From: a virus
Direction: 5' to 3' (one strand)
Length of the DNA: 64,000 nucleotides
Virus record (IMG/VR): IMGVR_UViG_3300036800_000031
Span: 1 to 64,000 of that record
Of the stretch, positions 5,762-51,478 are shown piece after piece. A model generated the notes under the pieces. It ran no database searches, was not told where the DNA came from, and saw only the letters and a list, made by a program, of their open reading frames with translations. The translations under genes were made by a program, and so were the position numbers. How positions within the stretch are numbered: position 1 is the first letter of the stretch; the number at the start of each line of letters is the position of its first letter.

Positions 5762-5985
5762 GGGAGTTCCTTCCTCCGCTTGCCCATCGTGAGCTTCACC
5801 GCCGCTACCGTCACCTTCGACGCCTTGGCAATCTCGGTCAGCGAGGCTCCGGCTTCCTGGGCTTTGAAGTAGAGGGCGTCACGCTTCCGGTACAGCTTGC
5901 GTGATTCCTTGGTGACCAGGTTGAGTTGGCCGGTGACTTCGGCCATCTGCCTGAGTAGGCGGTCCTTGGGCTTCTCCGCCATCAA
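5758..5985 (-). CDS. small HTH protein
   Basis: GASLTEIAKASKVTVAAV helix-turn-helix. Confidence 0.6.
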   Translation of the reverse strand: MMAEKPKDRLLRQMAEVTGQLNLVTKESRKLYRKRDALYFKAQEAGASLTEIAKASKVTVAAVKLTMGKRRKELP

Positions 5986-38622: not shown

Positions 38623-39861
38623 TCAGACCGTGGTGACGTTGCAGAACAGGTCGGGACGGAAGATCATCAGTCCGACCCGCTCTTCGCAGACCATGAGGAT
38701 CTGGTTCAGCTCGGCGTACCGCTCCTTGTAGGTCTCCACGTTGACCTGCTCGCGGTCGGCGATCATGCCGCCCAGCTGGAAGTCGCCGACCAGCGAGGTG
38801 TTCAGCGCCATCGCACGGGTCCGGTAGGTCGGAACACCCCAAACCGTCAGCGGAAGGTCGCTGAAGGGGGTTCCGGCGTCGAACGTGCCCGAGCCGCCCG
38901 CTGCCCGCTTGGTGAACATGTTCCAAGCGTTGGTCGGGTTGAGGACAACCGCCGTCGGGGTGCCGTCGTGGTTCTCCACCTGAGCGAACGCAGCCCCGAA
39001 GGTCTGAGCGTTGTCGGTGTTGACCGCACCCTGCGTCAGCACGCCGTTGGCTCCCAGGACGCCCTGGAGGTCAGGCCAGGTGCCCGAACCGTTCAGGAAC
39101 TCCCAGTCCTCCTTGAAACGGACCAGGTACGGCAGCCGCTGGTTGATGTATTGGATCACGGCCTGGGCGTCCTCGAACAGCTGCTTCGAGATCACCAACG
39201 TGGCGGCGATGACGGTCGGGTCGGCCTTGGCAGCCTGGAAGCTCAGCGTGGCGTTGGGCTTCACTCCACCCTCGGGGACGGCGGATGCCGACTCGTAGTT
39301 GGTGGGGTTGAGTTCCTGGACGTAGGGAATCTGCGCCAGGGTGGTCGTCATCTTCGGGAACAGGTCCCGGAGGAACAACCGTGCCTGCCTCGGCACCGGG
39401 GCGATGGGCTGACCGACCGGGAGCAGGTAGCCCGCTCCAGAGGGGTCAACGCCGGGGGGGCCGGACGAACCAAAGTCCTGCACCGCACGGGTGAGCATCT
39501 GGTCCAGCGTGCCCTTGCCTTCGTAGGCTTCCTCGAAGGGGGCGTTGCGGGTGCCCGAGAGCGCCCACTTCACCATGTCCTCGGAGATGAACATTTCCCC
39601 GAGCGACCGGCGCTCGATGTCATCTTCGGTGCTGCGTGCCCCGCCACCAGCCGTTGCGGCCAGCTTTGCGTTGGCCCGGCGCTCCTCCAACTCGCCCAGC
39701 GTGATCTGAGCGTCAAGCTCATTCACCTTGGCGAACATGGACTGGAGGCGAGCGGAATCCTCATCGGAGCGCACGCCTTCGGGCAGGTCGGCGAACTCAC
39801 GACGGAGGTTTGCGCACTCCTCGTAAAGCTCGTCCAGGTTCAGGGTTGCTGCTTCAGCCAT
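38623..39861 (-). CDS. HK97-fold major capsid protein
   Basis: coiled-coil delta domain, VPEGGVKP, FLNGSG, GDF and EERVGLMIFRP motifs. Confidence 0.95.
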   Translation of the reverse strand: MAEAATLNLDELYEECANLRREFADLPEGVRSDEDSARLQSMFAKVNELDAQITLGELEERRANAKLAATAGGGARSTEDDIERRSLGEMFISEDMVKWALSGTRNAPFEEAYEGKGTLDQMLTRAVQDFGSSGPPGVDPSGAGYLLPVGQPIAPVPRQARLFLRDLFPKMTTTLAQIPYVQELNPTNYESASAVPEGGVKPNATLSFQAAKADPTVIAATLVISKQLFEDAQAVIQYINQRLPYLVRFKEDWEFLNGSGTWPDLQGVLGANGVLTQGAVNTDNAQTFGAAFAQVENHDGTPTAVVLNPTNAWNMFTKRAAGGSGTFDAGTPFSDLPLTVWGVPTYRTRAMALNTSLVGDFQLGGMIADREQVNVETYKERYAELNQILMVCEERVGLMIFRPDLFCNVTTV

Positions 39862-40059
39862 GACAGACCTCTTTCGATTGAATCAGGGAACGGACGCCCG
39901 GATAGGCGATCCAACGCTCTCCCGACGGTCAATCGGACCTGTCGTGGGGTGCTGAGGAGAAAGGTAGCGCAAGGAAGGGAGGAGGGTATGGGATACCCCC
40001 GAACGCGAAACGACCGGAGCCTTTTGGACCCCGGCCGAATCGCCTTCACAGTACCTACG

Positions 40060-40131
40060 TGGCGGAGGGGAGACTCGAACTCCCGACTTCCTGGTTATGA
40101 GCCAGACGGGCTGCCGCTGCCCTACTCCGCT
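40060..40131 (-). tRNA. tRNA-Met(CAT), initiator-like
   Basis: cloverleaf; loop CTCATAA; A1xC72 mismatch. Confidence 0.85.
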
Positions 40132-40661
40132 GTGCTCATAGAAGCTACCAGGGTGGGCCTACCGATAGCAAGGTATGGCTCCCAAGCGGGGTCTGGCCGG
40201 ATTTTCAGGAGGTGGGCAGCGACGCCCTTGGGCCGGAAAGGGGTGTTGTGAAGTTCCCATCCCAGCGAGTCCAGGGTCTGGTGGCCCTTCTTCTGATTGC
40301 ATCTCCGGCAACAAGCGGTGACGTTCTCCCAGGTGTGCTTTCCACCGAGCGCCCTGGGGACGATGTGGTCGATGGTGCCGTCCTGGCGGACGTCCTTCTG
40401 GCAGTAGCCACACCGGTACCCATCTCGGGCACAGACGTTGGAAGTGATGAGCATGATGCTCCGGTGCTTCTCGGGCATCACGACGTACTTCCGAAGGACG
40501 AGGACCGAGGGGACCATGACCTGAGTAGACGGAGAGCGGAAGACTTCACCGCTGTATTCGATGGGGTCGGCAAGCTCCTCCAGGTAAAGCTCGACAGCAT
40601 CCCGGTCGCGAATGATCGCGAGGGGTTCTCTGCTGGCGTTCAGGAGGAGCGCCCTGTTCAT
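40122..40661 (-). CDS. HNH endonuclease (McrA-like)
   Basis: RDGYRCGYC...TIDHIVPRALGG...WENVTACCRRCNQKKG. Confidence 0.9.
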   Translation of the reverse strand: MNRALLLNASREPLAIIRDRDAVELYLEELADPIEYSGEVFRSPSTQVMVPSVLVLRKYVVMPEKHRSIMLITSNVCARDGYRCGYCQKDVRQDGTIDHIVPRALGGKHTWENVTACCRRCNQKKGHQTLDSLGWELHNTPFRPKGVAAHLLKIRPDPAWEPYLAIGRPTLVASMSTAE

Positions 40662-40707
40662 CTGATTCTCGGTCTCTTTGTCATCGTCACTGCTTTCTGG
40701 TTGATTC

Positions 40708-40794
40708 TGGTCTCAGCGGCGGGAGTCGAACCCGCATGGCCGTTCAGGCCAGCCCGTTTTGAGCGGGGTGCGTATTCCGTTCCGCCACGCTGAG
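40708..40794 (-). tRNA. tRNA-Leu(CAA)
   Basis: type II cloverleaf, loop CTCAAAA, CCA encoded. Confidence 0.9.
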
Positions 40795-40812
40795 GTGATC
40801 TGAATAGTCCAA

Positions 40813-40899
40813 TGGTGCGAACGGGGAGAGTCGAACTCCCACTGGGCCGAGCCCACCACAGTCTCAGTGTGGCCTGTCTACCGATTCCAGCACGCTCGC
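40813..40899 (-). tRNA. tRNA-Leu(GAG)
   Basis: type II, loop CTGAGAC, CCA encoded. Confidence 0.9.
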
Positions 40900-40900
40900 A

Positions 40901-40972
40901 TGGTGCCCCCGCCCGGAATCGAACCGGGATCGGCCTGATTAGAAGTCAGAGGACGGATTCCATCCCGAGGGC
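40901..40972 (-). tRNA. tRNA-Arg(TCT), atypical D arm
   Basis: loop CTTCTAA, canonical T arm, CCA encoded. Confidence 0.75.
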
Positions 40973-40973
40973 T

Positions 40974-41043
40974 TGGTACCGGAGCCGAGAATCGAACTCG
41001 GTCGCCACGATTATGAGCCGTGGGCCTGCCCAGCAAATCCGGC
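40974..41043 (-). tRNA. tRNA-Met/Ile2(CAT), short D arm
   Basis: loop CTCATAA, T arm, CCA encoded. Confidence 0.7.
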
Positions 41044-41193
41044 AAGATCAGATCGAATCTCCCGTGTGGCCTCTCGCTTCTCCTGGGCACGGGTAATGCG
41101 CTCGGGGCGTAGCCAGGAGTTGACCTCGCACATCCGATGCCCGTGGACAGGGCAGTGTGCGTTGATACCGATGTGCCCACGCATTTTCGCCAT
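41011..41193 (-). CDS. small basic protein inside the tRNA array
   Basis: MAKMRGHIG..CPVHGH..C...RAQEKREA; fills the gap between tRNAs. Confidence 0.5.
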   Translation of the reverse strand: MAKMRGHIGINAHCPVHGHRMCEVNSWLRPERITRAQEKREATREIRSDLAGFAGQAHGS

Positions 41194-41207
41194 GAGCACA
41201 TCGTAGG

Positions 41208-41283
41208 TGGGGTGGATGAGGGGAATCGAACCCCCTAACAGACACGGTCACAGCGTGCTCCCTCGCCATTTGGGTTCATCCAC
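41208..41283 (-). tRNA. tRNA-His(GTG)
   Basis: loop CTGTGAC, C73, CCA encoded. Confidence 0.85.
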
Positions 41284-41285
41284 AG

Positions 41286-41357
41286 TCCACCAGGTAGGGA
41301 TCGAACCTACGACCTTCACTTTGTAAGAGTGCTGCGCTCCCGCTGCGCCACTGGTGG
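41286..41357 (-). tRNA. tRNA-Val(TAC)
   Basis: loop CTTACAA. Confidence 0.9.
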
Positions 41358-41414
41358 TTGATGCTGGGGCCGGAGGATCGTAGGCAGGCCCTTACCTCCC
41401 CTCCGGCCTTAGCG

Positions 41415-41487
41415 TGCCCCCGGCAGGAATCGAACCCGCTCATCCTCCGATTAAAAGTCGGCTGACCTCCCACTGGCCTACAAGGGC
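41415..41487 (-). tRNA. tRNA-Lys(TTT)
   Basis: loop CTTTTAA. Confidence 0.85.
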
Positions 41488-41488
41488 A

Positions 41489-41564
41489 TGGTCCCCACCC
41501 TGGGTGTCGAACCCAGTGTCTTCCGAGTATCAGTCGGACGCCTTCACCGTCTGGCCCGATGGGG
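41489..41564 (-). tRNA. tRNA-Ile(GAT)
   Basis: loop CTGATAC, CCA encoded. Confidence 0.9.
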
Positions 41565-41608
41565 ATAAGTCAGGGCGGGATGGCAGCGAACCACCATCAC
41601 CGCCCCGG

Positions 41609-41681
41609 TGCCCGCAGAGGGTCTCGATCCCCCGGCCTTCGGCGTGTCGTGCCGACGCTCTCCCAACTGAGCTATGCGAGC
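41609..41681 (-). tRNA. tRNA-Val(GAC)
   Basis: loop ACGACAC (C33), otherwise canonical. Confidence 0.8.
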
Positions 41682-41682
41682 T

Positions 41683-41830
41683 TGGTGGAAACTCTCTCCC
41701 GGTCACGTCTGGCGACCGAACGGCACCGAGAGGGATGAACTCCGATGCTTCACGGTCGGCGGCTTCAGCCACGTTCATCAGCGCGTGACGCCACCCAGCG
41801 ACGTTCCTGAGAAGGAGGAGACAGGCTCCC
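41683..41830 (-). ncRNA. 148-nt structured RNA ending ACCA with an Ala-type acceptor stem
   Basis: 5' GGGAGC pairs with 3' GTTTCC-ACCA; internal GTCACG/CGTGAC and GATGAAC/GTTCATC helices. Confidence 0.55.
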
Positions 41831-41837
41831 CCTTCGG

Positions 41838-41910
41838 TGGTTCCCGCCGGGATCGAACCGACGCCTTCCGGGCTTCAACCGGACGCTGCTGCCAACTAAG
41901 CTAGAGAACC
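41838..41910 (-). tRNA. tRNA-Phe(GAA)
   Basis: loop TTGAAGC; 5' end overlaps the HNH stop codon. Confidence 0.85.
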
Positions 41911-42368
41911 TTGTTTTTTCTCCCCCGCCAGGTCGGCGTAAGGGCATGGCAGTTGGGGCATAGGATCGCCAGGTTCTCGATCCGGTGATCGTCCTTCACC
42001 CCGTTCATATGGTCAACCTCCAGTGGTATTGGCTGACCCATCCACTGGACCCGCTTGCACTCTTTACATTGACGCTTCCGCCCCTGCGCCAAGAGAATGG
42101 GCAGGAGGTGATAGGTCGGGTAGGTCGAGTTCTCGCAAAAGATTTCCTCCAGCGTGCGCCGACGAAGGGGCGCTCCACGGGTACCAACCCAGGACTGCCC
42201 GGTGAAGTGGCTGACATCGGCCCCAAGCCGCTTTGCATGTCTCTGGACCGAGCCGTAGTTGCCTCCGGCGAGATTAAGGCCGACTCCCCTGACTACCTGC
42301 GCCCAACTGGTCGAGGCGACGATGGCCTCCAGTAGCTCGGAATCGGTCCATGACCTCGGCTTGCCCAT
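41901..42368 (-). CDS. HNH homing endonuclease
   Basis: CKEC...W.GQPIPLEVDHMNGVKDDHRIENLAILCPNCH. Confidence 0.9.
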   Translation of the reverse strand: MGKPRSWTDSELLEAIVASTSWAQVVRGVGLNLAGGNYGSVQRHAKRLGADVSHFTGQSWVGTRGAPLRRRTLEEIFCENSTYPTYHLLPILLAQGRKRQCKECKRVQWMGQPIPLEVDHMNGVKDDHRIENLAILCPNCHALTPTWRGRKNKVL

Positions 42369-42385
42369 GCCGTAGTCTACCGTTA

Positions 42386-42416
42386 CGGACGCTCTCCCTG
42401 ACTGAGCTAGGGAACC
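42386..42416 (-). pseudogene. orphan 5' half of tRNA-Phe
   Basis: GGTTCCC-TAGCTCAGTCAGGGAGAGC-GTCCG, breaks off in the anticodon stem. Confidence 0.8.
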
Positions 42417-42417
42417 T

Positions 42418-42492
42418 TGGTGCGGCCCGGAGGAATCGAACCCCATCCGAGAGGGCATAAGCCTCTCTGCGGCCACCAGCCGCACGAGCCGC
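42418..42492 (-). tRNA. tRNA-Ile(TAT)
   Basis: loop CTTATGC, A73, CCA encoded. Confidence 0.75.
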
Positions 42493-42493
42493 A

Positions 42494-42566
42494 TGGAGCC
42501 GTCGCTGGGGGTCAAACCCAGCCGGGCGTCGTTACAAAGGACACCTCCGCATCGGGCGGCGACGGC
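42494..42566 (-). tRNA. tRNA-Thr(TGT), atypical
   Basis: loop TTTGTAA, GCC...GGC-TCCA acceptor, degenerate D arm. Confidence 0.65.
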
Positions 42567-42567
42567 A

Positions 42568-42646
42568 TGGCTGGGGAGGAGGGCCTCGAACCCCCAAGGA
42601 ATCCTGTTTCAAAGACAGGCGACTTTGCCACTTTGTCTACTCCCCA
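42568..42646 (-). tRNA. tRNA-Gln(TTG)
   Basis: loop CTTTGAA, CCA encoded. Confidence 0.9.
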
Positions 42647-42647
42647 A

Positions 42648-42721
42648 TGGAACGGACGAAGGGAATCGAACCCTCATAGTCAGATTGGAAGTCTGACGTT
42701 CTACCGTTGAACTACGTCCGC
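42648..42721 (-). tRNA. tRNA-Gly(TCC)
   Basis: loop CTTCCAA, CCA encoded. Confidence 0.9.
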
Positions 42722-42722
42722 A

Positions 42723-42824
42723 TGGTGGACAGAGAGAAGATGCTCTCGACGTATTACCGCCGTAAGTGTGACCCTCCCCTTTCCCAAGACCGTGGCATTG
42801 CCAGCTTGGGTTAGGCGTCTGCCC
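42723..42824 (-). ncRNA. 102-nt structured RNA ending ACCA with an Ala-type acceptor stem
   Basis: GGGCAGA/TCTGTCC-ACCA 7-bp stem with G3:U70; no TTC loop and no anticodon arm. Confidence 0.6.
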
Positions 42825-42835
42825 AGCGCCATCGG

Positions 42836-42907
42836 AGCGAATGACGGGGGTCGAACCCGCGACCTTCTCGTTGGCAACGAGACGCTCTACCACTGAGCCA
42901 CATTCGC
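42836..42907 (-). tRNA. tRNA-Gly(GCC)
   Basis: loop TTGCCAA. Confidence 0.9.
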
Positions 42908-42909
42908 AT

Positions 42910-42983
42910 TGGAGGCTGGACCCGGAATCGAACCGGGCTGACGCGGGTTGCAACCGCGCACCTCACCACTCGGCCATCCAGCC
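42910..42983 (-). tRNA. tRNA-Cys(GCA)
   Basis: loop TTGCAAC, U73, CCA encoded. Confidence 0.9.
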
Positions 42984-42987
42984 AAAG

Positions 42988-43058
42988 CCCCCTCGCTAGG
43001 TAACGATCCCAGTTCTTCCGATTAACAGTCGGACGTGTGGCCTTCACACCGCAAGGGG
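42988..43058 (-). tRNA. tRNA-Asn(GTT), divergent D and T loops
   Basis: loop CTGTTAA. Confidence 0.75.
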
Positions 43059-43062
43059 AAAA

Positions 43063-43479
43063 TCAAGCCACCACCTGCCGGTTGGCGCACCCACCCATTC
43101 GGTAGATCCGTTTGGCCTCCCTGCATCGGGAACACCGGCAGCCGTTTGGCATGTTGTACCGAGCACCTGTTCCGTGAGGTGGTACCGGCAACTTGTTGTG
43201 TCCACCACCAGAAGCCATATCTCCGGCTTCTTTCCCTTTCTCTATGTGGAGGGCATGGCAAAGAAGTTGACATTTCTCCAACTCGACCAAGAGGTTCTCC
43301 ATCGAGTGAGAGAGCATGTTCGCTATCCCCTCGACCTTTGTAGTCCGGTCGATGTGGTCTATTTCTAGGCGGTCTGTCGTACCGCAACGGACGCATTCAC
43401 CTCCGAGGAAGTCGATAACGAACTCTCGTCGCTTCTTCCGACGTTCGACCATGTAGGTGTTCATATCTGCCATCGGCAT
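43063..43479 (-). CDS. HNH endonuclease
   Basis: LGGECVRCG...LEIDHID...ELEKCQLLCHALH; C-terminal HGT...GCRCSRC. Confidence 0.85.
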   Translation of the reverse strand: MPMADMNTYMVERRKKRREFVIDFLGGECVRCGTTDRLEIDHIDRTTKVEGIANMLSHSMENLLVELEKCQLLCHALHIEKGKEAGDMASGGGHNKLPVPPHGTGARYNMPNGCRCSRCREAKRIYRMGGCANRQVVA

Positions 43480-43539
43480 AGGGGTTAACCGTACTACCGA
43501 CGCCGACTGAGCACCCCCGCCAAGAGGGTCCGGTCAGGA

Positions 43540-43590
43540 TGGTGCCAGGCTTTCCGCCCCACTCGATCCCCGAAGGGTTACGAACCTGGC
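43540..43590 (-). ncRNA. 51-nt mini-RNA ending ACCA
   Basis: GCCAGGTT/AGCCTGGC-ACCA stem enclosing a CCC-TTCG-GGG hairpin. Confidence 0.4.
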
Positions 43591-43602
43591 TGGTGGTCTT
43601 CG

Positions 43603-43674
43603 TAGCGCGTGCGGGTGTTGATCCCGCGGCCTCCTGACTGAGAATCAGGCGTTCTCCCGTTGAACTAACGCGCC
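43603..43674 (-). tRNA. tRNA-Glu(CTC)
   Basis: loop TTCTCAG. Confidence 0.85.
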
Positions 43675-43675
43675 T

Positions 43676-43750
43676 TGGTACAGCGACGGAGAATCGAACT
43701 CCGATTACCAGGGTGAAAACCTGGCCTCTTCGCCGTTAGAGGATCGCTGC
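43676..43750 (-). tRNA. tRNA-Glu(TTC)
   Basis: loop TTTTCAC, CCA encoded. Confidence 0.9.
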
Positions 43751-43816
43751 ATGAAGCTGAGTAGCCGCCACCCCAGGTACCCAGGTGACCAGTGAAGCCC
43801 CGGCGGACTGCCCCGG

Positions 43817-43900
43817 CGGAGAGTACAGGTGTCGATCCCGCGGACTTTCATCCGTATCCCTGCTTTCAAGGCAGGTTCCCAGGCCGCTGGGATACTCTCC
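43817..43900 (-). tRNA. tRNA-Ser(TGA)
   Basis: type II, loop CTTGAAA, G73. Confidence 0.8.
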
Positions 43901-44301
43901 CTGCTCGGGCTCGAACGGTGTTCTTGCCCTTGTAGGTTTCCGTCTGAGCGTGACAGTTCGCGCAGAGCAGACGGAGATTCTCGATGCGGTGGTCATCGTT
44001 GATCCATCTCCAACGGAGCTGGCTCGCCGTTCCATTCGGTCAGGCCACACCGATCACACTTCGGCTGCTTGATCCCCTCTCGGAGAAGCCGCCGTTTCAC
44101 GTTGCCGGTGCTGTAGGTGGAGTGCTCCACTAGCACCGACTCCAGGGACCTCTGGTTGCCCCGTGGGGTCGCCCACGGCCTCGTGTGGGAGGTCGAGCAA
44201 CTGATGGAGCAGTAGGCCCGCTGGGTCTGAGACAGGAAGTTGTGACAGGAGCCATTCCCGCAAACATGCTGGCTGCGACCAGCGATCGGGAGCCAACTCA
44301 T
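43866..44301 (-). pseudogene. frameshifted HNH endonuclease
   Basis: one frame ends ...WNGEPAPLEMD and another continues NDDHRIENLRLLCANCHAQTETYKGKN; the HING segment is missing. Confidence 0.8.
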
Positions 44302-44346
44302 GACGACAGCTTACTATCCTGTTCGGGCGACCGAATGGCCGTCCAG

Positions 44347-44429
44347 CGGAAGTGGTCGGGGTCGAACCGACAGGGGCTTTCACCCGTAGACGCTTAGCGG
44401 GCGTCCTGCTCACCATTCGCATCACTTCC
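44347..44429 (-). tRNA. tRNA-Ser(GCT)
   Basis: type II, loop CCGCTAA (C33), G73. Confidence 0.8.
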
Positions 44430-44433
44430 AAAG

Positions 44434-44501
44434 AACCCCCGCTGGGAATCGAACCCAGCCAGCCGGTTTAGGAAACCAGCGCCCCTTCCACGGGCGAGGG
44501 C
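44434..44501 (-). tRNA. tRNA-Arg(CCT), reduced D arm
   Basis: loop TTCCTAA. Confidence 0.7.
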
Positions 44502-44502
44502 A

Positions 44503-44578
44503 TGGAGCCGACAGCCGGGATCGAACCGGCCACCTACGCGTTACGAGTGCGTCGCTCTCCCTACTGAGCTATGTCGGC
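44503..44578 (-). tRNA. tRNA-Thr(CGT)
   Basis: loop CTCGTAA, CCA encoded. Confidence 0.9.
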
Positions 44579-44579
44579 A

Positions 44580-44656
44580 TGGAGCCACGACGGGGGATCG
44601 AACCCCGGACCTCCTACTTACCAAGCAGGCGCTCTCCCTGACTGAGCTATCGCGGC
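44580..44656 (-). tRNA. tRNA-Thr(GGT)
   Basis: loop TTGGTAA, CCA encoded. Confidence 0.9.
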
Positions 44657-44730
44657 CGGACCGGCTAGACCATCAGCGCCCTTCCGGGTTGATTACGTCA
44701 GGGACGTTGTACACCGTCCTTTTCGCCGAG

Positions 44731-44799
44731 TGGCCAAGGTGGGACTCGAACCCACAGGGCGTTCCTTCGGAGGGATCGCTGCATTCCATCGCCTTGGCC
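44731..44799 (-). tRNA. tRNA-Arg(CCG)-like, degenerate D arm
   Basis: perfect acceptor and T arms; loop CTCCGAA on an extended, mismatched stem. Confidence 0.55.
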
Positions 44800-44800
44800 C

Positions 44801-44876
44801 TGGTACCCCCATCCAGGGTCGAACTGAAATCTTCGGTTCCGTAGACCGACGCTCTGATCCATTGAGCTATGAGGGC
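44801..44876 (-). tRNA. tRNA-Arg(ACG)
   Basis: loop CTACGGA, CCA encoded. Confidence 0.9.
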
Positions 44877-44882
44877 AAGAAA

Positions 44883-44993
44883 AAAGCGGACCTCCCACTC
44901 GCAGGCCGGTATGCCTTCCGACCCCGTACACTCGGCTCGGGCACCACCCCTTCGCCACGTCGCAATCATGCTGGTGGTAAGACGGTCCGCTTT
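44883..44993 (-). ncRNA. 111-nt rod-shaped structured RNA
   Basis: AAAGCGGACC/GGTCCGCTTT terminal helix extended by three further helices; 3' U-tract. Confidence 0.5.
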
Positions 44994-45048
44994 CGGGACA
45001 GCCGCCCTGTGGCGGCTTTTCATCGCAGGATTGCCTGCGCATCCCGAG

Positions 45049-45121
45049 CGGTCGTGACCGGTTTTGATCCGGCTACCTCCACCTTGACAGGGTGGCGCTC
45101 TCCCGAGTGAGCTACACGACC
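45049..45121 (-). tRNA. tRNA-Asp(GTC)
   Basis: loop CTGTCAA, G73. Confidence 0.9.
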
Positions 45122-45122
45122 T

Positions 45123-45199
45123 TGGTCCGCTAGACAGGATTTGAACCTGCGACCTCATCGTCCCGAACGATGCGCGCTCCCTAGCTGCGCTACTAGCGG
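45123..45199 (-). tRNA. tRNA-Pro(CGG)
   Basis: loop TTCGGGA, CCA encoded. Confidence 0.9.
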
Positions 45200-45200
45200 T

Positions 45201-45274
45201 TGGCTCCCCAGCCAAGGGTCGAACTTGGATACCGAGATTCAGAATCTCGTGTGCTGCCATTACACCACCGGGGA
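45201..45274 (-). tRNA. tRNA-Gln(CTG)
   Basis: loop TTCTGAA, CCA encoded. Confidence 0.9.
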
Positions 45275-45347
45275 AGGCTGCGGACTCTGCCGCGGGTCAC
45301 GCCTAGTTAGGGTCGGCGTTCACCCATGCCCGGTGATCAGTCGGGAG

Positions 45348-45419
45348 TCGGATACCGGAGAGTCGAACTCCGCTGGGCCTGGCCCCAAACCAGGTGCCTA
45401 ACCGATCGGCATGTATCCG
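45348..45419 (-). tRNA. tRNA-Pro(TGG)
   Basis: loop TTTGGGG. Confidence 0.8.
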
Positions 45420-45493
45420 GTGTCGCTGTCTCTCCAGCAGCAACGTCTGGTATCCCCAGGTCTAAGTAGGGGTTCGGGACGACGTTCTCCCGG

Positions 45494-45565
45494 TCGGACT
45501 GGAGGGGATCGAACCCTCGACTTCTCGGCCCCCAGCCGAGCGCTCTACCTCTGAGCCACAGTCCG
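45494..45565 (-). tRNA. tRNA-Pro(GGG)
   Basis: loop CTGGGGG. Confidence 0.9.
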
Positions 45566-45669
45566 GTGAAACCTGACCCGCTGCCAGTAGACAGTTGCCC
45601 CGGAGGGCTTCACATGCGTGTGCACCTCGCATGAACGACGGAATGGATTATCACCGTCCCGAGTCATTG

Positions 45670-45742
45670 TGCGCCCGGTGGGGTTTGAACCCACGACCTT
45701 GGGATTAAGAATCCCCTGCTCTCCCGGCTGAGCTACAAGCGC
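45670..45742 (-). tRNA. tRNA-Lys(CTT)
   Basis: loop TTCTTAA. Confidence 0.9.
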
Positions 45743-45743
45743 C

Positions 45744-45828
45744 TGGTGCGTGTGGAGGGAGTCGAACCCTCAGCCCCGAAGGGCACCGCTTCTGGGGCGG
45801 CTGCGTATACCAGTTCCGCCACGAACGC
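45744..45828 (-). tRNA. tRNA-Leu(CAG)
   Basis: type II, loop CCCAGAA (C33), CCA encoded. Confidence 0.8.
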
Positions 45829-45863
45829 AGGATGGGCAGTTTTCAGACTTGGCCCAGGTCGCG

Positions 45864-45936
45864 TGGAGCCTACGAGGATCGAACTCGTTACCTCCTGTTT
45901 GCAAAACAGGCGCTCTCCCGGATGAGCTAAGGCCCC
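45864..45936 (-). tRNA. tRNA-Ala(TGC)
   Basis: G3:U70, loop TTTGCAA. Confidence 0.9.
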
Positions 45937-45942
45937 AAAGCT

Positions 45943-46044
45943 AGGATGCGGGCTGCCATTACACCACCGCAGCCCCCGAGGGGGTGAAAGTTCCCTTGCG
46001 GTTGCTCTCTTACGCGACGTGGAATCGAACCACGACCTCATCCT
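45943..46044 (-). ncRNA. circularly permuted tRNA-like RNA (YrlA/Y-RNA-like)
   Basis: T arm CGTGG-TTCGATT-CCACG lies 5' of the D-arm sequence TGGTGTAATGGCAGC; ends closed by AGGATG/CATCCT. Confidence 0.65.
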
Positions 46045-46046
46045 CG

Positions 46047-46125
46047 TCCGCCGCCTCAGAATCGAACTGAGCGTGCTTGCGCGGCTGGTTTACAGCCAGC
46101 CTGGCCCCCTTGGCGCGTGCGACGG
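46047..46125 (-). tRNA. tRNA-Tyr(GTA)
   Basis: loop CTGTAAA, variable arm, C1:G72. Confidence 0.75.
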
Positions 46126-46265
46126 ATGCGGGACGGTCGGTACCCGGGCAACTGCCCGGCCCGTCCCATTTGGACTATTCAGCGTGACGGGTTTTGTTCG
46201 GTACCGTCACTATCGCCTGCTACCTCCCTCACTCGCCATGACGGACGAGGTACTGAGGTTTGAAG

Positions 46266-46297
46266 CATGGGTGGAGGGAGTCGAACCCCCCTTCACC
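46266..46297 (-). pseudogene. orphan 3' remnant of the resident tRNA-Trp
   Basis: T arm plus CACCCAT-G, exactly complementary to ATGGGTG at 46756-46762. Confidence 0.8.
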
Positions 46298-46300
46298 TCG

Positions 46301-46371
46301 CATGGGCGTCAGGAATCGAACCTGATCGGCGAGAGTTTTGGAGACTCTCCGGCTACCTCAGCCTCGCCCAT
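46301..46371 (-). tRNA. tRNA-Trp(CCA), replacement copy overlapping the HNH gene
   Basis: ATGGGCG/CGCCCAT-G acceptor, loop CTCCAAA. Confidence 0.8.
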
Positions 46372-46707
46372 ATGCGCTCGGAAGTAGGTGCGATCCCCGT
46401 GGCACAGGGCACACACCACTTCACACTTGGCTATCTCGGCCAGCAGCCGGGCAACCGAAGCCGGAGAATGAGCCATCCGGTTGATACATCGGTCTTTCTC
46501 CTCGTCCCCGAGGTGGTCGAAGTGCATGTTCCAGAACCCGTACTGGATTCCACAATCTGCACAGGGCCGGTTTTTGTGCTCTCGGACTATCGACCGATTG
46601 CGCTCCCGGTACTCGACTACTCGCTGCCGATACTGAGCCTTGTTGTTTCGATAATGCTTCCTCTTGCTCTCCTTCAGTCGTGGATCTTCTAGGTCGAGAT
46701 AGGCCAT
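46309..46707 (-). CDS. HNH homing endonuclease
   Basis: PCADCG...MHFDHL...EIAKCEVVCALCHGDRT. Confidence 0.85.
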   Translation of the reverse strand: MAYLDLEDPRLKESKRKHYRNNKAQYRQRVVEYRERNRSIVREHKNRPCADCGIQYGFWNMHFDHLGDEEKDRCINRMAHSPASVARLLAEIAKCEVVCALCHGDRTYFRAHMGEAEVAGESPKLSPIRFDS

Positions 46708-46726
46708 GCCCTCAGCGTAGGTCCAG

Positions 46727-46762
46727 TGGAAGCCGCTGCTCTGCCCACTGAGCTACACCCAT
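46727..46762 (-). pseudogene. orphan 5' half of the resident tRNA-Trp, ending at the anticodon
   Basis: ATGGGTG-TAGCTCAGTGGGCAGAGC-A-GCGGC-TTCCA, then unrelated sequence. Confidence 0.85.
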
Positions 46763-46763
46763 A

Positions 46764-46793
46764 AGAAAAGGCCACCCCTATTGGGATGGCCTC
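46764..46793 (-). terminator. intrinsic terminator-like hairpin at the head of the tRNA array
   Basis: AGGCCATCCC-AATA-GGGGTGGCCT followed by TTTCTT. Confidence 0.6.
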
Positions 46794-46955
46794 TGGATTC
46801 TCCGCTTCTACTTCAGATGCGGTTACGAGAGGCTCACCCCTGGCTTGGCTTCGGTGGATGTATTCCACTGATAGCCGGGCACGAGGATCGACAGGCACGG
46901 CAACGCCGTCCCTCGATCTTCATAGCTCGGAAACAGTTGGAACCTCATGACGTTC

Positions 46956-46983
46956 ATAGTACCCCGATTTCGAGGGGGGTCAA
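46956..46983 (-). promoter_or_regulatory. sigma70/SigA-like promoter for the tRNA array
   Basis: TTGACC-N16-TACTAT. Confidence 0.55.
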
Positions 46984-47621
46984 GTACCCTGTGCTGCCCG
47001 GCGGCTTGGAAGGCCCATCGTGTTGCCGATCTGCCCGCCGTTCATCCAGTGGTGCCAGGTCCAGGTGCGCTCCGGAAGGTGAGCGATTTTGTACCCGGAG
47101 CGGGCGAGCTTGATGGCGAAGTGGAACTCCTCCCCAGCCCGATTTCCGTCCTCATCCTGACCCGGATCGAGAGGGTCGGTCCCGTCTTCCCAAAGGAACC
47201 CGTTGACCGCCAATGCCGCTTCGGTACGCACGAGGACGGTCACGGTGGTCTGGTGGGGATCGGCCAGATCGAACTCCCGTCCGAAGTTGTCAGGGAAGGG
47301 GTCCGAGCCGCCCATGACGTAGAACCAAGGGAACACCATGTCCGCCCCGGTCTCAATCTGCTTCTCCATCAGCCGTTGGAGGTGGTGCTCCCCGAACTCG
47401 TCGTCGTCATCCAGAAAGGCAACCCACTCGGTGTCCACCATTTCCAAGCCACGGGTGCGGGTGATGGCCGCTCCTACTCCGAAAACGTCGCTGGCGACGA
47501 TCAGCGTATGGGGGAGAACGGTGCCCTTCTGGACGGAAGTAACCGCCCGGCCTAGAAGCTGTGCCCGCTCGGGGATGGTGGTGACGACGACGGTGATCCC
47601 CGGCCTTAGCTGGCTCGACAC
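46980..47621 (-). CDS. glycosyltransferase family 2
   Basis: ITVVVTTIPER...AITRTRGL...WVAFLDDDDEF. Confidence 0.85.
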   Translation of the reverse strand: MSSQLRPGITVVVTTIPERAQLLGRAVTSVQKGTVLPHTLIVASDVFGVGAAITRTRGLEMVDTEWVAFLDDDDEFGEHHLQRLMEKQIETGADMVFPWFYVMGGSDPFPDNFGREFDLADPHQTTVTVLVRTEAALAVNGFLWEDGTDPLDPGQDEDGNRAGEEFHFAIKLARSGYKIAHLPERTWTWHHWMNGGQIGNTMGLPSRRAAQGT

Positions 47622-51453: not shown

Positions 51454-51478
51454 GGCTCTCTGTCTAGTTGATATGCGG

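Follow-up and report, generated by a model that had tools for sequence, protein, structure and literature searches.

The subject of this report is a 64,000-nucleotide (nt) stretch of DNA, positions 1 to 64,000 of IMG/VR virus record IMGVR_UViG_3300036800_000031, a complete soil-phage record of 89,253 bp that has terminal repeats; the whole stretch is referred to below as the window. Within its array of transfer RNA (tRNA) genes, a gene for an HNH endonuclease is situated between an orphan 5' half of a tRNA-Phe gene and a whole tRNA-Phe gene. We propose, with moderate confidence, that this is a free-standing HNH homing-endonuclease cassette that uses no intron and instead breaks and rebuilds the tRNA-Phe gene. 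In a genome carrying the cassette, the front of the old gene would stay upstream as a dead stub, and the working tRNA-Phe would be headed by a copy of the front that travels with the nuclease; because the substitute front travels with the nuclease, the tRNA would be whole without splicing.

The array is located on the minus strand, with 34 tRNA genes called by ARAGORN at 40059-46371 and one more at 51477. On this strand, the locus runs from tRNA-Ile(TAT) (42418-42492, with its CCA end at 42418) through a single A to the 31-nt tRNA-Phe 5' stub (42386-42416), a 17-nt spacer (42369-42385), the HNH gene (41901-42368, with its ATG at 42368 and its TAG at 41903-41901, encoding 155 amino acids) and finally tRNA-Phe(GAA) (41836-41910), the sole tRNA-Phe called in the window. 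An earlier sequence-only reading of this DNA had placed the orphan half before an HNH gene and an intact tRNA-Phe after it, and all of these are where that reading put them. The stub has the form GGTTCCC TA GCTC AGTCAGGGA GAGC G TCCG (42416-42386), that is, a 7-nt acceptor strand, TA, a canonical 4-bp D arm, a G and four anticodon-stem bases, with no 3' half; both the sequence and its alignment show tRNA homology stopping at the first base of the spacer. The downstream tRNA-Phe(GAA) looks functional: ARAGORN calls it, and it scores 53.3 bits against the Infernal tRNA model, whose gathering score is 29. It is interlocked with the nuclease gene, such that the final 10 nt of the HNH open reading frame (ORF) are tRNA-Phe positions 1-10 and the TAG stop is formed by U8, A9 and G10. 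In the 154-nt spacer that follows the tRNA (41682-41835), local alignment detected nothing left of a tRNA-Phe 3' half (score 8, p = 0.55, 1000 shuffles), which fits with the resident 3' part being the one in use; a 3' remnant suspected by eye in this spacer gained no support from the alignment. Neither GC content nor GC3 (GC content at third codon positions) marks the HNH gene as foreign.

Ungapped alignment of the stub with the 5' half of the working gene (41910-41880) shows 23 identities in 31 positions, with mismatches at raw positions 6, 13, 17, 18, 20, 21, 22 and 23, and the three bases 5' of position 1 are also common to both copies. This is the top non-self match of the 31-mer on either strand of the 64-kb window (the runner-up matches at 21/31), and the local alignment score of 16 has a p value of 0.002, the floor for 500 shuffles. 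The stub is thus a true homologue of the tRNA-Phe 5' half, and its best matches are the 5' halves of phage tRNA-Phe genes. It had also been noted from the letters that the stub pairs perfectly with the GGGAACC acceptor strand of the tRNA and that the present 5' half needs a G:U wobble, and we find exactly this: the stub forms seven of seven Watson-Crick pairs and the working copy has one G:U pair (T6:G67). The D stem of the present tRNA-Phe additionally contains a T13:C mismatch. When stub positions 1-31 are joined in silico to tRNA positions 32-75, there is no mismatched pair and the cloverleaf is the minimum-energy fold at -30.1 kcal/mol; the cloverleaf of the present tRNA-Phe is at -24.4 kcal/mol and is not its minimum-energy fold. 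A 32-nt piece containing the stub alone is not called by Infernal as a truncated tRNA, a result that is little test for so short a stretch. We note that the D arm of tRNA-Thr(GGT), 20 nt at 44630-44649, is identical to that of the stub; this identity probably reflects a shared consensus or, less probably, an ectopic repair template.

An allele of this site lacking the HNH gene is present in public data. Two public sequencing runs share words with the stretch, neither of them listed as RNA: X1 is the probable source and X2 is a soil metagenome from another study with 10% of the words; both were aligned on 39800-47200. One 151-nt contig of X2, at depth 2, has its first 100 letters on 41795-41894 and its last 51 on 42401-42451, and the joint 41894->42401 skips 506 bases with nothing between (100 + 51 = 151); the contig otherwise differs from the window only at 41834 and 41836. 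Read on the minus strand it contains tRNA-Ile, the single A, stub positions 1-16, tRNA-Phe positions 17-75 and the downstream spacer, with the tRNA-Ile flank common to both alleles. The evidence is thin but specific: an HNH-less allele exists, and the locus is polymorphic for a 506-bp unit (41895-42400, minus strand) bounded by an imperfect direct repeat of the tRNA 5' end, a pattern characteristic of homing-endonuclease cassettes. This unit consists of tRNA positions 1-16, the HNH gene, the 17-nt spacer and stub positions 17-31, and the HNH ORF takes up 468 of its 506 bp. An error of 31-mer assembly is an unlikely source of the joint, since the two repeats share no run of more than 8 nt. No such 506-bp-skipping joint is seen in X1. 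The contigs of the source run break at window positions 41963-41979 and 42859-42885, and a 923-nt piece containing most of the HNH gene has a depth of 8.1, slightly below that of its neighbours (10.2 and 9.5), with no joint supporting a mixed population.

The composition of the X2 allele locates the boundary between the two kinds of sequence. Its D loop is that of the present gene at all six discriminating positions (17-23). Twelve letters of the contig fit on either side of the joint, which can therefore slide by up to 12 nt and lies between positions 5 and 17; the rows of listed differences place the switch from stub-type to present-type sequence between positions 13 and 17. Positions 13 and 6 (42404 and 42411) are read as the stub's C and C, since no difference is listed there and others are listed. 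So read, the HNH-less allele starts with GGTTCCC and not with the GGTTCTC that, according to the sequence-only reading, relatives without the HNH should not already carry. Coverage by X2 is nil at 42023-42269 and in the bins within the three further nuclease genes that are not of the HNH_5 type, but this carries no weight and was not used for direction.

A capsid-based search yielded one relative, L022 (capsid 65% identical), in which the order is again Ile(TAT)-Phe-Ile(GAT) and Ile(TAT) is separated from Phe by 49 nt containing no ORF; the tRNA-Phe of L022 is too diverged to type its allele, and its array is without homologues of four of the five HNH genes of the window. The same site is therefore seen without the nuclease in X2 (one contig, depth 2) and in L022 (one distant relative). 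A search based on the glycosyltransferase gave no relative, and megablast against cultured phages returned only a piece of tRNA-Gly. As exact patterns, the stub 31-mer is absent from the viral collection and a 26-mer from it is absent from the metagenome collection; the present D arm has no exact match in the viral collection and, with one Y, none in the viral or genome collections; and the pattern of T arm plus acceptor has no exact match in the viral collection.

These observations are consistent with the following series of events. The nuclease would cut an HNH-less tRNA-Phe gene of the X2 type within its 5' half, and the break would be repaired from a donor already laid out as stub, HNH gene and tRNA, with the tRNA pieces and their flanks acting as homology arms. 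On this history, positions 1-16 of the chimeric present tRNA, bearing T6 and T13, would come from the cassette and positions 17-75 from the resident gene, and the stub would be the converse chimera, resident positions 1-16 having become its front. Neither of the carrier's two copies has the combination found in the HNH-less allele, and this could protect the carrier from its own enzyme.

A chimera of an element-borne 5' half and a resident 3' half, joined at the shared GCGTCCG, had been proposed by the sequence-only reading. The locus does differ from a near-identical HNH-less allele by a 506-bp indel, and the proposal is supported in part, with at most positions 1-16 (T6, T13) being specific to the HNH-bearing gene and not the whole 5' half. 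The junction itself has to be moved: the HNH-less allele is the same as the present gene from position 17 onward, so that the boundary is at positions 13-17 and not at GCGTCCG. For the earlier version to stand exactly as stated, the HNH-less allele would have to be secondary, a product of recombination between the two repeats. In that form it holds that a complete foreign 31-nt 5' half was joined at GCGTCCG, that the stub is the whole resident half, that the D-arm differences provide immunity and that X2 reflects a later loss of the HNH gene. We regard this as unlikely, if still a serious competitor. It draws on the 7/7 pairing of the stub and on the cloverleaf being the minimum-energy fold of the stub plus 3' part and not of the present gene; stub homology stops exactly at position 31, seven of the eight differences fall within the D arm, tRNA-Phe genes having a canonical D arm and the same anticodon arm are common in phages, and none of the 13 loci with that anticodon arm has a family HNH beside its tRNA-Phe. 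Against this, the sole HNH-less allele has the present-type D loop at 6/6 discriminating positions, and the crossover would have to resolve within a 3-nt identical run (AGT) despite the availability of runs of 8, 6 and 8 nt. Because of that last requirement, the comparison mildly favours X2 as an uninvaded allele over X2 as a carrier that has lost its HNH gene. A third possibility, an entirely resident present gene beside an entirely foreign stub, agrees badly with X2, which has the stub bases at both discriminating positions in 1-16.

The HNH ORF resides in no intron or intein and is free-standing, as no ribozyme is matched and 468 of the 506 bp are coding. Since tRNA genes are classic sites both for group I introns, which are mentioned in tRNA genes in the accessible part of PMC2330249, and for site-specific integrating elements, the insert could in principle be one of these, but we consider this barely credible. 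No group I intron or other ribozyme is matched at E <= 10 in 39800-47200, and the ORF leaves little of the unit to be intron; the flanks are a direct repeat of the same 31 nt at the 5' end, and not two exons. There is likewise no integrase ORF in 39500-47500, the HNH genes are the only genes with family matches in 40059-46371, and the duplicated part is the 5' part of the tRNA and not the 3' part, as in att duplication.

The 155-residue product is an HNH endonuclease, as the sequence-only reading had it, matching phrog_10822 (phage HNH endonuclease) over residues 3-153 at E 1.7e-40 and passing the cut-off of Pfam HNH PF01844 (23.3 bits against 21.4), with a narrow miss for PF13392 (24.6 against 24.8). 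A large protein collection contains 1492 homologues at E <= 0.001, the nearest at 59% identity, and C101, C104, H120, N132, C137, C140 and H141, which make up two CxxC pairs plus catalytic residues, are invariant across 46 aligned sequences. The AlphaFold2 model (mean predicted local distance difference test score, pLDDT, of 89.6) has an N-terminal three-helix domain (residues 9-47), a loose linker (about 55-70) and a C-terminal beta-beta-alpha HNH region with pLDDT >90. Foldseek against the PDB gives no significant match for the whole protein (best E 0.011), and phmmer against PDB sequences gives only weak HNH-motif matches. The HNH part of the model resembles McrA-type HNH domains, and the matches to ScoMcrA are at 35-36% identity over 66-68 columns, which is not significant (E 0.3-0.75). 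A DNA-binding domain tethered to a nuclease is the usual build of a homing endonuclease, and the modelled protein may be read in this way, as a putative DNA-binding domain attached to a predicted zinc-stabilised HNH nuclease.

The phrog_10822 family tends to be placed directly before tRNA genes. We fetched 19 related loci from the viral collection and 53 from the metagenome collection, and removed 10 as repeat contigs (L004, L038, L045, L052-L055, L061, L074 and L075) and 13 as matches to the short HNH motif only (L016-L021 and L082-L088), leaving 49 loci and the window, or 50 places. In 34 of the 50, a same-strand tRNA overlaps the ORF stop or begins no more than 120 nt after it, and in seven of these 34 the HNH stop falls on tRNA positions 8-10. 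Under a second rule, with the tRNA start no more than 200 nt from the end of the tblastn match, the count is 27 of 50, and the tRNAs that follow are of the Gln, Gly, Phe, Leu, Ser, Trp, Val, Glu and Asp types. Nucleases of phrog_10822 type also match 235 records of cultured phages. Of the five independent arrays containing the nearest relatives (52-57% identity), four adjoin tRNA-Phe (the window, L003, L037 and L039), which points to tRNA-Phe genes as the home of this branch; in L036/L042 the HNH adjoins tRNA-Gly instead. The HNH genes of L036 and L039 stand at the same array position without and with tRNA-Phe respectively, but their proteins are only 46% identical and the pair is uninformative. 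By eye, two tRNA-like stretches that ARAGORN does not call are visible in L039 at about 390-530, one like the tRNA-Pro(TGG) of L036 with a shortened anticodon loop and the other Ala-like with a shrunken D arm.

Placement between tRNA genes raises another explanation, in which a tandem tRNA-Phe pair or a local duplication came first, an intergenic HNH deleted the 3' half of the first copy, and the stub is a decaying pseudogene. Most family members are indeed between two whole tRNAs with no stub, and the HNH of L056 is flanked by two whole, divergent tRNA-Asp(GTC) genes. But the HNH-less allele is one gene directly after tRNA-Ile, composed of the stub front and the present remainder, and L022 has a single tRNA-Phe at the site; we think a tandem origin improbable.

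Broken tRNA 5' halves were sought around other members of the family. A profile of tRNA 5' halves used with nhmmer was too insensitive, missing the Phe stub, and was replaced by a regular expression for the D arm. In 324,939 nt, the strict D-arm pattern matches 55 times inside called tRNAs and five times outside them, the five being the Phe stub and the Trp-cassette stub, both in the window, and sites in L003, L037 and L069. Local alignment of the 5' half of the next tRNA with the 260 nt before the HNH is significant for the window alone (p = 0.002; the next values are 0.03-0.04; 27 tests), and an earlier version of the test at 34 places had the same outcome. Broken 5' halves thus cluster around these nucleases, and replacement by the same tRNA type is seen only in the window. 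In L037, the orphan half (2845-2876) is like tRNA-Val(GAC), with 85.7% identity over 35 nt to window 41653-41687, and is 9 nt before a whole tRNA-Phe; after this tRNA-Phe come the closest HNH homologue and tRNA-Val(TAC), in that order. In L003, an orphan canonical 5' half (5917-5950) stands about 20 nt before a 57%-identical HNH, followed by tRNA-Phe, from which its acceptor and anticodon-stem bases differ. The two tRNA-Asp(GTC) genes of L056 (2861-2935 and 3636-3708) are whole, very different from one another and on both sides of the family member, resembling a full-length version of 'old copy, nuclease, new copy'.

The stub could alternatively be a functional RNA, either a tRNA-half-like leader through which the HNH message is processed or translated, or a 5' half destined for trans joining to a 3' half. 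It is intact with a canonical D arm, and no separate promoter is matched for the HNH gene nearby on its own strand. Nevertheless, no partner 3' half is found downstream, 26 of 27 testable family members are without such a stub, the stubs of L003 and L037 differ from it in sequence and position, and the stub matches no Rfam family, and we consider such a role very improbable. By eye, some 80 nt ahead of the HNH start in L006, L007, L008 and L012 there is a TTGACA-like element paired with a TATACT-like one, and then a conserved hairpin; with a conserved promoter-like pair before these four, some family members seem to carry their own promoter, unlike the window copy.

Other nuclease genes are present on the minus strand of the window. 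The Trp cassette consists of a stub (46729-46765, acceptor ATGGGTG plus a canonical D arm) before an HNH gene (46309-46707) that overlaps tRNA-Trp; in contrast to the Phe locus, it is the stub that has the wobble there, and the working gene pairs perfectly. Its HNH belongs to phrog_3106 and has no blastp match at 1e-3 to the phrog_10822 protein of the Phe locus, in agreement with the suggestion from the letters that the two belong to different subfamilies. A frameshifted pseudogene at 43901-44301 belongs to the HNH family of the Phe nuclease, with 35% identity over 81 residues; its frame breaks inside the HNH motif, and it is directly before tRNA-Ser(TGA) with no clear stub seen upstream. The HNH_5-type nuclease gene at 40122-40661 has a TAG stop at positions 8-10 of the next tRNA (tRNA-Met), and none of the other four nuclease genes of the window shares its feature of having a homologue in L022 (47% identity, L022 8932-9492).

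Several points weigh against a cassette that breaks and rebuilds tRNA-Phe. The HNH-less allele is a single 151-nt contig at depth 2, and its GGTTCCC start depends at positions 6 and 13 on the absence of difference rows; exact-pattern searches of the collections recovered neither the stub nor the present D arm nor the 3' part, so that there is no second witness of the allele. The 506 bp may have been gained or lost, because a carrier losing its HNH by recombination between the repeats would give the same pattern. Cutting of DNA by the protein, and the site at which it would cut, are predictions. A stub of the same type as the following tRNA is found at one of 27 testable places, and in L003 and L037, which contain the two closest homologues, the stub located no more than 150 nt before the HNH gene is not matched by the adjoining tRNA-Phe. 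Since a same-type stub is seen only in the window, it may be an accident of one event and not a designed part.

An extension of the proposal, which we offer as tentative and more doubtful than the proposal itself, is that the 506-bp unit may be a self-contained 'cut and rebuild' module that cuts the D arm at about positions 13-17, with its flanking tRNA pieces providing both homology arms and immunity. If this is true, a similar tRNA-Phe could be all that otherwise unrelated phages need to have in common for the module to pass between them, generating chimeric tRNAs, and two unrelated HNH families within one genome, those of the Phe and Trp cassettes, would have converged on one trick.

The proposal of a cassette that rebuilds the gene it breaks, if correct, means that a selfish nuclease can occupy an essential RNA gene without an intron by bringing a substitute for the part that it displaces. 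It would explain tRNA stubs, odd D arms, chimeric tRNAs and part of the rapid turnover of phage tRNA arrays, and annotators may wish to regard a 'partial tRNA' beside an HNH gene as the possible footprint of such an event. Given its tight placement before many types of tRNA, the family may also represent a natural reservoir of nucleases directed at tRNA genes. We know of no assay of a phrog_10822 protein, including gp149 of Gordonia phage GodonK (MK620899.1), which is 40% identical over 97% of the query. The GodonK gene resembles that of the window in starting 3 nt after tRNA-Leu and in overlapping tRNA-Glu by 10 nt, with its stop on positions 8-10, and differs in being between two whole and different tRNAs (Leu and Glu) with no stub. 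We found no description of a phage tRNA stub with an HNH gene and a replacement end in a literature search whose coverage mostly excluded subscription journals.

Among characterised systems, the closest in setting are nucleases of the tRNA regions of phages T4/T6 and T5. In the accessible part of PMC2330249, T4 SegB cuts the tRNA genes of phages without SegB and is inherited by nearly all progeny, and T5 is described as carrying F-Tfl endonucleases in its tRNA region; PMC13096335, as far as its accessible text goes, reports that SegB homologues are widely co-located with tRNAs and that microhomology between the tRNA-Tyr 5' end and the segB 3' end drives rearrangement. As in SegB (of T4/T6) and F-Tfl, the nuclease gene in the window is between tRNA genes and not intronic, the presumed targets are tRNA genes of relatives lacking the nuclease, and the gene is missing from close relatives. 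Unlike the window HNH, SegB is a GIY-YIG enzyme that is located between whole tRNA genes and recognises a T-arm motif, and the accessible descriptions of SegB and F-Tfl in these two papers include no truncated stub accompanied by a further, working 5' end that overlaps the nuclease ORF.

The closest parallel in logic is with the mobile endonuclease ORFs (mORFs) of fungal mitochondria. These enter atp6, atp9, cox2 and nad3 together with a foreign C-terminal piece and leave the native end as a remnant, giving gene hybrids in Allomyces atp6 and in Glomus atp6, atp9, cox2 and nad3, according to the accessible part of PMC3630166. As described there, the features shared with the proposed cassette are an endonuclease ORF that brings a substitute gene end, an unused native remnant, a working hybrid and an imperfect direct repeat. 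The mORF systems differ in involving protein genes, replacement of the 3' (C-terminal) end and LAGLIDADG or GIY-YIG enzymes, whereas an RNA gene, replacement of the 5' end and an HNH cassette would be involved in the phage, making it a mirror image. A further difference is that the mORF remnant, in the portion of that work available, matches the uninvaded relative throughout, whereas the match of the window to X2 switches copies at positions 13-17, the stub agreeing at positions 6 and 13 (as read from the absent differences) and the working copy at 17-23 (6/6). By analogy, the mirror-image parallel with fungal mitochondrial gene hybrids suggests that bringing a substitute for the displaced end may be a general solution that arises in very different genomes.

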